This document shows, in pieces, positions 55,261 to 56,787 of a DNA stretch of 64,000 nucleotides (its first letter is position 1; each line of letters opens with the position of its first letter). The stretch lies in the NCBI GenBank assembly GCA_024682395.1, contig JAIKZH010000081.1, positions 6,623 to 70,622 of the forward strand, read 5' to 3'. The translations under genes and the position numbers were made by a program. The notes under the pieces were generated by a model. The model was not told the origin of the DNA, did no database searches, and saw nothing but the letters and a program-made list of their open reading frames with translations. Source of the DNA: Bacteroidaceae bacterium. Its GTDB lineage: Bacteria; Bacteroidota; Bacteroidia; Bacteroidales; Bacteroidaceae.

Positions 55261-56787
55261 ATGAATCTATTTTTGTTTTTAGTTGGAGGTACTGGAGCAC
55301 GAGTTCTCAAACCGCTGGTAATGCAGTTAGCAGCAGGAGTACGTCCATGTGATGAGAATACAGGCGCACCTATCGCAGATTTACAGATTATTCCTATAAT
55401 AATGGATCCACATCGAGCAAATGAGGATCTCAAACGTACTGAAGATCTGTTGCGATGGTATAAAGAGATACGTCGAAGTCTATATGGTGAACGTACAGAT
55501 GTAGATCATGGATTTTTTAATGTGAAGATATCCACATTGGCAGATCTTATTCCTCAAAAAGGATTGAACAATTCATTTGTATTCAATTTGGGTAGTATTG
55601 CCGAGAAAGAATTCAAGGATTATATAGCATACGACACTCTTAATGATGCAAATCAGGCTCTTTGCAGTATGCTCTTCAGTAAGGATCAACTGAATACAAA
55701 GATGGATATCGGTTTTGTGGGCAGTCCTAACATCGGCGCAGTGGCCTTGAATCAGTTCAAAGATTCTGTGGAATTCCGTGAATTTGCTAATATATACAAA
55801 CGTGAAGACCGTATCTTTGTGGTAAGTTCAATTTTTGGTGGTACAGGCGCAGCGGGATTCCCTATCATTGTAAAGAACATACGTGATGCTGCAAGTAATC
55901 CGATGCTTACAAACAGAGGCGATTTGAGAGATGCAAAGATTGGCGCTCTTACAGTATTGCCATATTTTAATGTGGCAAGTGATGAAAATAGCCCTATTAC
56001 ACGTGCCGACTTTGTGATAAAGACGAAGTCTGCATTATATTACTATCAAGAGAATCTTACAGGTCCAAAGAGTTTGGCACTTAACGCATGTTATTATTTG
56101 GGCGATGAAGAGGCTTCTGTTCCTTATCCAAACGATCCAGGTGGTGACGGACAGCGCAATGATGCCCATTTCATCGAATATGTTGGTGCTTTGTCTATAT
56201 TGGATTTTATCTCTATACCAAACGATAAATTGATGACTATTGACGGTAAAGCACAAAATCCGCTGTTCCGTGAATATGGATTGAAATACGATGAGAAGAA
56301 CCTTACTTTAATGACATTTGGACAGAAAACACGTAATCTTGTCAATCAGTCATTAGTGAAGTTTCATCTGCTTTATATGTATCTGACAAATCAGTTTATG
56401 AAGGATATCGGACGAGGCTATACTTTGGATGCACCTGAGTTACGCTCTTCGTTTACATCTACCTCATTCTATCGTACATTGATAAATGAATTCTTCCATT
56501 CTTACTATGATTGGTTGATGGAGATGCAAAGTAACAATCGTTCGTTTGCTCCATTCAATATATTGACACTGAAACTGGAGAACTGTATAGTTGGTATTCC
56601 ACCTAAGAAAGGTCTTTTCAAAGGAGTTATTGATTACAAAACAGTTCTTTCTGCAATGAATGCAGAGTCAAAGAAAGCTACAACACAGTCGCGTTATTCG
56701 TCAAATCAACTTCCATTTAAACTGATGGATCTTTTCGATAGTGTTGCAGAGAAGATAATTGCAAAAAAGTTTAATTCAATCAAGTAA
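55261..56787 (+). CDS. Tubulin/FtsZ-superfamily-like GTPase (divergent; lacks a recognisable FtsZ C-terminal domain), cluster gene 3
   Basis: T1-like [11 protein letters not shown] (G9-G12; nt 55285-55296). T3-like [11 protein letters not shown] (aa 151-161). T4 signature-like [21 protein letters not shown] (GGTGAAG = aa 193-199, nt 55837-55857), then [11 protein letters not shown] (aa 226-236), which mirrors E. coli FtsZ [31 protein letters not shown]. No signal peptide. Confidence 0.6.
   Translation: [508 protein letters not shown]

Follow-up and report, generated by a model that had tools for sequence, protein, structure and literature searches.

A short FtsZl1-like candidate GTPase in a conserved five-gene envelope locus of Bacteroidales

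Introduction

The closest described relatives of the protein treated here are the FtsZl1 and FtsZl2 families, which were defined by Makarova & Koonin in 2010 as a computational prediction (PMC2875224). We analysed a 64,000-nucleotide (nt) stretch of DNA (the window; contig JAIKZH010000081.1 of assembly GCA_024682395.1, positions 6,623 to 70,622) from a Bacteroidaceae bacterium and focus on gene C, a candidate tubulin-like GTPase that stands third in a cassette of five genes, A to E. FtsZl1 is equivalent to the Pfam family Tubulin_2 (PF13809). In these proteins, the FtsZ-like domain is followed by a coiled coil and a helical domain; the T6-H7-T7 region is not identifiable, the FtsZ/tubulin C-terminal domain has no counterpart, and the alignment is not confident beyond H5, with filament formation left open (PMC2875224). 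FtsZl1 operons hold vWA, OmpA-like, GTPase and kinase genes. The Anabaena operon consists of vWA, FtsZl1, membrane protein B7 and MotB, and the Magnetospirillum operon includes a 1,626-aa (amino acid) DnaK-like protein (PMC2875224). No Prevotella sequence is on the 2010 FtsZl1 list, whose sole genuine Bacteroides entry is a 913-aa protein of B. caccae with different neighbours (PMC2875224). For FtsZl1, the authors proposed a nucleotide-controlled role of the envelope-remodelling or surveillance type (PMC2875224).

The searchable literature yielded no experimental characterisation of any FtsZl1/Tubulin_2 member. Gene C raises the question of whether a tubulin fold can work without a T7 loop and without the C-terminal domain. 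We consider it likely that C is a short-form FtsZl1-like protein, encoded in a conserved five-gene envelope operon and acting as a nucleotide-controlled assembly or switch component together with D. The short form offers a compact and abundant entry point to the FtsZl1/Tubulin_2 lineage, and its constant pairing with an actin/Hsp70-fold ATPase and membrane partners allows concrete, testable hypotheses. As far as the searchable literature shows, the following are new: the short architecture of ~500 aa with an invariant motif after strand S6; the obligate pairing with an actin/Hsp70-fold giant, a protein with four transmembrane (TM) helices and a lipoprotein; and the ZorAB-like extension of the cassette, together with its near-ubiquity and vertical inheritance in Prevotellaceae.

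Gene C and the tubulin superfamily

The evidence from sequence and from a predicted model supports gene C as a real, very divergent relative of FtsZ and tubulin, with the nucleotide-binding fold predicted in its N-terminal ~320 residues. Conservation was assessed in an alignment of 115 family members with 32-63% identity to C. The features of the gene are as follows:

55261..56787, + strand: gene C, from ATG start to stop codon, 508 aa, tubulin-like GTPase candidate
55282..55305, + strand: T1-like loop VGGTGARV (aa 8-15), with G9, G10, G12 and R14 invariant
55711..55737, + strand: T3-like loop GFVGSPNIG (aa 151-159), with G151, G154 and G159 invariant
55825..55863, + strand: S4 strand and T4 signature (aa 189-201), with S190, G193, G194, G196 and P201 invariant
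55939..55968, + strand: S5 strand and T5-like turn, LPYF (aa 227-236), with P234 and Y235 invariant
56140..56178, + strand: post-S6 motif G294-x3-Q298-x-N300-x-A302-H303-x2-E306, at a loop-to-helix junction
56218..56784, + strand: helical C-terminal region of ~190 aa, from the secondary structure of the model

Further invariant residues comprise G26, D49 (T2-like), Y67 and Y262, and F152, P156 and N157 of the T3-like loop are at least 90% conserved. The T1 consensus of the short-form family reads IGGTGsRV, the GGTG form typical of FtsZl1, and the T1 sequences of the published FtsZl1 alignment likewise read G(L/I)GGTG (PMC2875224). The T4 signature of C is GGTGAAG, compared with the canonical GGGTG[ST]G, and GG[TS]G occupies this position in every 50%-identity cluster representative whose sequence extends over it (146/146). 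The AlphaFold2 model places a strand at residues 226-232, in the S5 region.

An earlier note on this DNA had read the gene as a divergent tubulin/FtsZ-superfamily GTPase, with T1, T3 and T4 loops in order, the T4 signature changed to GGTGAAG, and a further FtsZ-like segment about 27 aa later. This reading is borne out at the level of motifs, family profiles and fold. The three loops lie at the residues given and are invariant across orthologues, as are the glycine motifs whose conservation the note had named as a test; the signature is as described, and the segment after T4 is in place at aa 227-236 with its invariant P234 and Y235. A match to the tubulin/FtsZ GTPase domain, another of the tests proposed, was found at both the family and the fold level.

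The family-level evidence comes from diverse members scanned individually against Pfam. Tubulin_2 is matched by 95 of 98 members (best E 3.3e-10) and Tubulin (PF00091) by 93 of 98 at E<=0.1 (best 3.7e-6), and no Pfam family besides these two of the Tubulin clan is matched by more than 2 of the 98. The core of both matches is the T4 segment of C, which aligns to the GGGTG(T/S)G of FtsZ and CetZ. The member from Thermonema rossianum reaches the PF13809 gathering score (27.3 against 27 bits). Of the 120 best profile hits, 39 come with PF13809 as a precomputed assignment, and one hit bears the name 'Tubulin/FtsZ GTPase domain-containing protein'. All PDB sequences that match C at E<=10 (35/35, phmmer) are FtsZ, with T3 and T4 aligned to their FtsZ counterparts, and aa 3-317 match a Gloeothece plasmid protein labelled 'tubulin-like domain-containing protein' by NCBI (tblastn E=2e-16).

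At the level of fold, the AlphaFold2 model of C has a mean predicted local distance difference test score (pLDDT) of 78 and a predicted TM-score (pTM) of 0.83. Its best Foldseek matches in the PDB are CetZ (3zid, 4b45), FtsZ (1rq2, 6unx) and tubulin, each with a probability of 1.0, and the best viral match (BFVD) is a phage tubulin, also with a probability of 1.0.

Several results weigh against the assignment. The window protein taken alone scores below every curated threshold: 19.1 bits for PF00091 (E=1.7e-3, cutoff 33), 16.2 bits for PF13809 (E=6.7e-3, gathering threshold 27) and E=0.05 for TIGR00065 ftsZ. The Foldseek scores are weak (E 6e-3 to 1e-2, TM-score 0.36-0.42), and the nucleotide-binding loops are low-confidence parts of the model. 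Family profiles searched against PDB sequences (hmmsearch) gave no significant match; usable signal comes only from profile-profile and fold comparisons. A comparison by hhalign with the single E. coli FtsZ sequence reached 1.2% probability; it is uninformative because the template has no alignment depth.

These weaknesses bear on the possibility that the resemblance is convergent and that C is a generic Rossmann-like protein with a nucleotide-binding or enzymatic function. The individual E-values of the window protein all exceed 1e-3, its Pfam matches cover mainly T1 and the S4-T4-H4 segment, and a few Rossmann-like enzymes appear in the Foldseek list. We nevertheless judge convergence very improbable. 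Five motifs occur in the correct order and spacing, all of them invariant. Only two families, both of the Tubulin clan, are matched beyond isolated members, every PDB sequence match is an FtsZ, and the tubulin superfamily ranks at the top of two structure libraries, compared with probabilities of 0.06-0.2 for the Rossmann enzymes. The profile-profile similarity to FtsZl1, given below, further extends over ~150 columns through S6 and the next helix, with clean controls.

The family is large. A word-indexed search returned 1,581 relatives of C, and an exhaustive profile search of 1.84 billion representatives of 50%-identity clusters returned 1,822 at E<=1e-3 and 490 at E<=1e-30. Among the 150 best listed relatives, the length is 415-530 aa, a few truncated fragments aside, and most match over nearly their full length. 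The short form spans Bacteroidota, Cyanobacteria and Spirochaetota; the 120 best profile hits come from Cytophagales, Chitinophagales, Sphingobacteriales and Tannerellaceae, and Prevotella species sampled from gut, oral cavity and rumen carry the gene throughout. A 'hypothetical protein' deposited from a Bacteroidaceae metagenome-assembled genome (MAG) has exactly the sequence of C, and the buffalo-rumen MAG RGIG8301 matches the window locus at 99% identity. The Bacteroidales branch is labelled 'hypothetical protein' throughout, and the cyanobacterial relatives are already labelled tubulin-like. Since C scores under the Pfam thresholds, it has been annotated as hypothetical; a tubulin-like label now corrects this gap for the Bacteroidales branch.

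Comparison with described tubulin-like families

For the comparison with FtsZl1, we used seven long plasmid-borne FtsZl1 proteins, including Npun_AF098 from the 2010 list. The hhalign comparison of the two families reaches 87.6% probability with the N-terminal alignment and places the T1 of the short-form family on the T1 of FtsZl1. Against full-length FtsZl1, the probability is 79% over query positions 167-318, which comprise S4, T4, H4, S5, H5, S6 and the following helix. Four control pairs gave 0.1-3.6%. These comparisons support C as a short-form (~500 aa) offshoot of FtsZl1/Tubulin_2, in which the GTPase domain is homologous and the architecture departs from the one that defines FtsZl1.

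The two share a GGTG-type T1, the T4 signature GGTG(S/A)xG and family-specific inserts between T1 and T4, and neither has an identifiable T7 or an FtsZ/tubulin C-terminal domain. At the level of operons, the two have in common membrane proteins, a MotA-like/MotB-OmpA pair and, at times, Hsp70-like giants, and the vWA protein of FtsZl1 has a suspected counterpart in A. In contrast to the 760-1,200 aa of FtsZl1, C has ~500 aa and the members of its family 460-530 aa; C lacks the coiled coil and ends in an unrelated helical domain. Its cassette has fixed partners (the 4-TM protein B, the ASKHA giant D, and E) and contains neither the new-family GTPase nor the protein kinases described for FtsZl1 operons.

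With FtsZ and CetZ, C has the N-terminal nucleotide-binding fold in common, and T3 and T4 align residue by residue. It differs from them in lacking the NxDxxD of T7, the FtsZ_C domain and the C-terminal tail, in a ~100-aa insert between S2 and T3, in a context that is no dcw cluster, and in a structural-match identity of only 9-16%. FtsZl2 is similar in overall length and likewise combines a divergent FtsZ-like domain with a non-FtsZ C-terminal region of ~300 aa (PMC2875224). It keeps T6, H7 and T7, however, is restricted to Proteobacteria and has no conserved neighbourhood (PMC2875224), whereas the C family has no T7, stands in a strict operon and finds its best profile match in Tubulin_2.

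The combination of a GGTG-type signature, a missing T7 and a foreign C-terminal half was already published for FtsZl1 in 2010, which lowers the novelty of the corresponding observation in the earlier note (PMC2875224).

The post-S6 motif and the C-terminal region

The sequence NxDxx[DE] was not found anywhere in C, and among the 115 aligned members at most 4 share it at any one position. The T7 loop that the earlier note could not find is thus not conserved anywhere in the family. Its second claim, a C-terminal part unlike that of FtsZ or tubulin, holds for ~190 helical aa by the model, Pfam and hhalign. In this region, the model contains long helices at 355-377, 402-423, 459-475 and 484-503, with W418 and E421 conserved. 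Pfam gave no match to FtsZ_C, Tubulin_C or any other family in these ~190 aa, and hhalign of the C-terminal 190 aa against full-length FtsZl1 reached 0.2% probability. With T7 and the C-terminal domain both lost, half of the canonical longitudinal interface is gone.

Where the canonical fold would continue, the family has the post-S6 motif. Among the 115 members, G294, Q298 and E306 are conserved at 100% and N300, A302 and H303 at 94-98%; in the Gloeothece homologue, this site reads QRNEPHFIE. The model shows strand S6 at 276-282, then a 20-residue loop and a helix at 304-318, and pLDDT falls below 50 for residues 282-302, a range that overlaps the motif. The motif may be the equivalent of the T6/H7 base-binding region or of the T7/H8 catalytic region.

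The second of these options leads to the idea that C is a cytomotive filament former, assembling head to tail with GTP, in which NxAHxxE would serve as a shifted T7/H8 catalytic loop reaching into the pocket of the next subunit. Past S6, the motif occupies a loop-to-helix junction, the place expected for T7/H8 in a fold with shortened H6 and H7, and an invariant acidic residue three positions past H303 resembles NxDxxE. To our knowledge, every characterised family of the superfamily (FtsZ, tubulin, TubZ, PhuZ, CetZ) polymerises, and the partner D belongs to the other filament-forming superfamily. Set against this, the spacing of the motif is one residue off NxDxx[DE], and helix 304-318 could equally be H7, in which case the motif could be the region of T6/H7 that contacts guanine. 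FtsZ and tubulin build half of their longitudinal interface from the C-terminal domain, in whose place C has unrelated helices, and the model is of low confidence at the motif; the FtsZl1 alignment of Makarova & Koonin also ends in confidence at H5 (PMC2875224). We therefore regard a filament former as a serious possibility, though one we lean against.

The five-gene cassette and its distribution

The partners of C in the window are the following:

53104..54657, + strand: gene A, lipoprotein of ~517 aa, with a signal peptide ending in a conserved Cys
54704..55150, + strand: gene B, 148 aa, small inner-membrane protein for which hydropathy predicts four TM helices
56815..60318, + strand: gene D, cytoplasmic protein of 1,167 aa, always directly after C
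58597..59904, + strand: ASKHA (actin/Hsp70/MreB/ParM-like) ATPase domain of D, ~aa 595-1030, from profiles and Foldseek
60315..61586, + strand: gene E, bitopic membrane protein of 423 aa, from hydropathy and sequence

Genes C and D are separated by 27 nt, and the stop of D overlaps the start of E by 4 nt. Prevotellaceae, Muribaculaceae and Bacteroidaceae contribute 80 loci, all with the order A-B-C-D-E, and the same order occurs in Thermonema, Albibacterium, a Chitinophagales MAG, a Leptospiraceae MAG and three metagenomic contigs. The DnaE and DUF4254 genes that flank the cassette in the window are not a constant feature of the 80 Bacteroidales loci.

The mechanical open reading frame of gene A begins at a GTG at 53026, and orthologues point to M27 (53104) as the likely start. 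Lipobox-like N-termini are present in more than 40 orthologues. Wherever the contig extends far enough, nearly all of the 80 Bacteroidales loci have gene A upstream of C, as do the distant loci. In its sequence, a MIDAS-like (E/K)xSGSM strand, a VSDMIYS motif and a conserved Asp suggest a vWA fold, which we suspect from the sequence.

Gene B stands directly upstream of C in Bacteroidales, Thermonema, Chitinophagales, the Leptospiraceae MAG and the Gloeothece plasmid; scans of Pfam, NCBIfam and PADLOC gave no match for it.

The best-defined partner is D. It carries the invariant motifs DFGTxNxH, ESxAP, DIGGGxxD and FSGxxS, and its weak Pfam matches are to MreB_Mbl, FtsA and EutA. Profile matches in the PDB are FtsA, Hsc70, MreB or actin in 32 of 33 cases. 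Foldseek of its AlphaFold2 model returned 250 matches at E<=1e-3 (best 2e-6, probability 1.0), and all 50 listed matches have the actin/Hsp70 fold (DnaK/Hsp70 nucleotide-binding domain, actin, ParM, MreB, Arp8, Ppx/GppA). Because both the PDB profile matches and the Foldseek matches are of this fold, we assign an actin/Hsp70-fold ATPase domain to D. No family or fold match was obtained for its N-terminal ~590 aa, which are helical and then beta-rich.

Gene E has a signal peptide and an acidic region of low complexity. These are followed by a TM helix (aa 183-201), a linker that is coiled-coil and Pro-rich, and a globular C-terminal domain. The last of these, a conserved cytoplasmic domain of ~100 aa (~61272-61583), follows D in ~70 loci, among them those of Thermonema, Chitinophagales and Leptospiraceae. 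No family or fold match was found for E. Its aa ~95-180 (60600-60860) are strongly acidic, of Glu/Thr/Ala-rich low complexity and predicted to be periplasmic, and this stretch gave spurious Pfam matches (RIFIN, HEAT).

A relative of C is encoded in more than 580 of 600 pattern-matched stretches from a collection with one genome per species. In ~15 Prevotella species, the flanking genes for a U32 peptidase, a TonB receptor and MatE are syntenic, with 45-68% identity; C (~60%) and D (~57-60%) show the same divergence as these flanks. Synteny combined with equal divergence is what vertical inheritance of a core locus would be expected to produce.

Outside this setting, the mobilizable 47.5-kb plasmid Cy782204 of Gloeothece verrucosa PCC 7822 carries the B-C-D trio in order (7505-15788), encoding a 4-TM protein, a 511-aa tubulin-like protein and a 1,118-aa D-like protein, followed by unassigned genes of 415 and 528 aa. 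Picosynechococcus plasmids gave matches similar to those of the Gloeothece plasmid. Homologues of A and E were not detected beside the cyanobacterial genes or the long FtsZl1 genes.

Extended cassettes and defence-type neighbours

Outside Bacteroidales, the cassette gains a MotA/ExbB protein with a long coiled-coil tail, a MotB/OmpA protein and often a retropepsin-like protease. The first protein is ZorA-like (PF01618 at 27.5 bits, cutoff 22.9; ZorA1 1e-4) and the second ZorB-like (ZorB1 3e-18; PF00691 at 30.6 bits, cutoff 27.2); the aspartyl protease matches PF13975 at 3.5e-17, and the candidate defence system PDC-S06 matches the extended cassette at 1.6e-7. The extended stretches are:

L083, 16171-19263: extended cassette
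L090, 16173-20698: extended cassette
L089, 16179-19131: extended cassette
L084, 10113-12370: extended cassette

The ZorA/ZorB-like pair is present in the loci of Thermonema, L084, Leptospiraceae and Chitinophagales. In the Chitinophagales locus, an extra 598-aa gene of unknown type lies between the ZorA-like and ZorB-like genes.

The pair recalls Zorya, whose ZorA and ZorB models match the MotA/ExbB coiled-coil protein and the MotB/OmpA protein of the extended cassette. The likeness has its limits: the ZorA match is weak (1e-4), no homologues of ZorC, ZorD or ZorE-G were found in any locus examined, and the pair is missing from the window and from all 80 Bacteroidales loci.

A second point of comparison is given by Kaur, Burroughs, Iyer & Aravind (2020), who read tubulin/vWA/HSP70 neighbourhoods as conflict systems. 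In their DO-GTPase/GAP1-N2 systems, as in the C cassette, tubulin- and Hsp70-superfamily proteins occur in membrane-proximal multi-gene systems with vWA proteins (Kaur 2020). Those systems are defined by DO-GTPases and GAP1, however, neither of which was detected in the C cassette by general scans made without a GAP1 profile. Correspondingly, no P-loop GTPase family was detected in A, B, D or E with Pfam, NCBIfam and PADLOC, no dedicated GAP1 profile being used; the unassigned N-terminal half of D could in principle still be GAP1. Moreover, the tubulin and HSP70 themes of the DO-GTPase systems never overlap and are confined to Firmicutes and Actinobacteria (Kaur 2020), whereas in the C cassette both folds are always together, in Bacteroidota.

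The long FtsZl1 genes adjoin genes for BrxL, Swt1-family HEPN, caspase-family and DUF2357 proteins, a setting like that of defence islands. On plasmids of Deinococcus, Meiothermus, Azospirillum and Thermus (L094-L098), long FtsZl1 genes stand beside vWA or MotA/OmpA genes.

Together, these neighbourhoods raise the possibility that the cassette has an anti-phage or conflict function. C and D would then act as switches or effectors that multimerise with nucleoside triphosphates (NTPs), the part proposed for the tubulin and HSP70 themes of the DO-GTPase/GAP1 systems. The trigger would be an envelope perturbation sensed through the ZorAB-like motor, as in Zorya, and the retropepsin-like protease could serve as a processing step. 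The ZorA/ZorB-like and PDC-S06 matches, the B-C-D trio on a mobilizable cyanobacterial plasmid, the defence-type neighbours of the long FtsZl1 genes and the interpretation of Kaur et al. (2020) all agree with this. Opposed to it are the behaviour and content of the Bacteroidales locus. In Prevotella it is syntenic, has housekeeping flanks and diverges at their rate, unlike typical defence islands, and a relative is found in nearly every pattern-matched stretch of the one-genome-per-species collection. The Bacteroidales cassette contains neither ZorAB nor a recognisable effector (nuclease, TIR, protease), and it shows no sign of the TRAFAC DO-GTPase or GAP1 in the general scans described above. 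PADLOC has no match for A-E of the window or of Thermonema, and no phage-encoded homologue of C was found. On balance, we regard a conflict system as unlikely.

Proposed role

In Prevotellaceae, the operon shows the behaviour of a chromosomal locus that is stable and inherited vertically, and for this reason we favour envelope remodelling or surveillance over cell division or a mobile defence island. A periplasmic lipoprotein, two membrane proteins, two predicted cytoplasmic NTPases and an ancestral stator indicate an envelope-spanning complex. We postulate that C binds GTP in the canonical pocket and acts at the cytoplasmic face of the inner membrane, where it would be held by B, by the cytoplasmic domain of E, or by both. 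There it would serve as the nucleotide-controlled assembly or switch subunit that works with the ATPase D, and the complex would be coupled through the envelope to the lipoprotein A and, ancestrally, to a stator driven by the proton-motive force. As T7 is missing, GTP hydrolysis by C is probably slow or activated in a non-canonical manner; candidate activators are the invariant QxNxAHxxE, a residue of the helical C-terminal domain such as E421, or a partner protein.

A paralogue for cell division was also considered and is unlikely in view of the non-dcw neighbours and the lack of the C-terminal domain and tail of FtsZ.

The proposed envelope role has its own weak points. Neither the 64-kb window nor the 80 Bacteroidales loci contain the ZorAB-like pair, and the protease is likewise missing from the window and the Prevotella-type loci, so that coupling to a stator may not apply to this organism. 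The suggested functional link of C with B, D and E derives from gene order alone. The vWA fold suspected for A failed in profile tests: no Pfam, NCBIfam or PDB match was obtained, even with a 42-sequence profile, and hhalign against the vWA neighbours of FtsZl1 reached 5.4% probability. The defence-island-like surroundings of the long FtsZl1 genes count on the same side, and the plasmid-borne relatives favour a conflict role for the wider family.

A more far-reaching form of the envelope model is tentative, and we hold it to be rather doubtful as a whole. The A-E cassette would be an undescribed envelope-spanning machine, in which a T7-less tubulin-fold GTPase and an actin-fold giant form an obligate pair at the inner membrane. 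Ancestrally, a ZorAB-like proton-powered stator would have driven this pair or received its signals. In the Prevotellaceae of gut and rumen, the machine would have been kept as a vertically inherited housekeeping system that remodels the outer membrane or vesicles or surveys the envelope, with a GTPase activation unlike that of characterised tubulin or FtsZ.

Genes flanking the cassette

Most Prevotella loci have a fast-evolving 268-aa protein after E (L001 15589-16395 and 40 others). It shows 25-60% identity between species, has no family match and is absent from the window. In the window, a tRNA-Arg gene (anticodon CCT) directly downstream of E marks the end of the operon; it is followed by a DUF4254 protein and a 334-aa protein that resembles heptosyltransferase-type glycosyltransferases in sequence. 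On its upstream side, the cassette directly adjoins a putative DnaE-like DNA polymerase III alpha subunit.

49238-52930: DnaE-like DNA polymerase III alpha subunit (candidate), 1,230 aa
61626-61698, - strand: tRNA-Arg (anticodon CCT)
61769-62374: DUF4254 protein (PF14063, E=7e-65)
62497-63501: 334-aa protein, putative glycosyltransferase

The adjacency of DnaE to the cassette occurs only in one near-identical MAG (L003), and the pair of DUF4254 and 334-aa proteins adjoins the cassette only in the three closest Bacteroidaceae loci (L003-L005).

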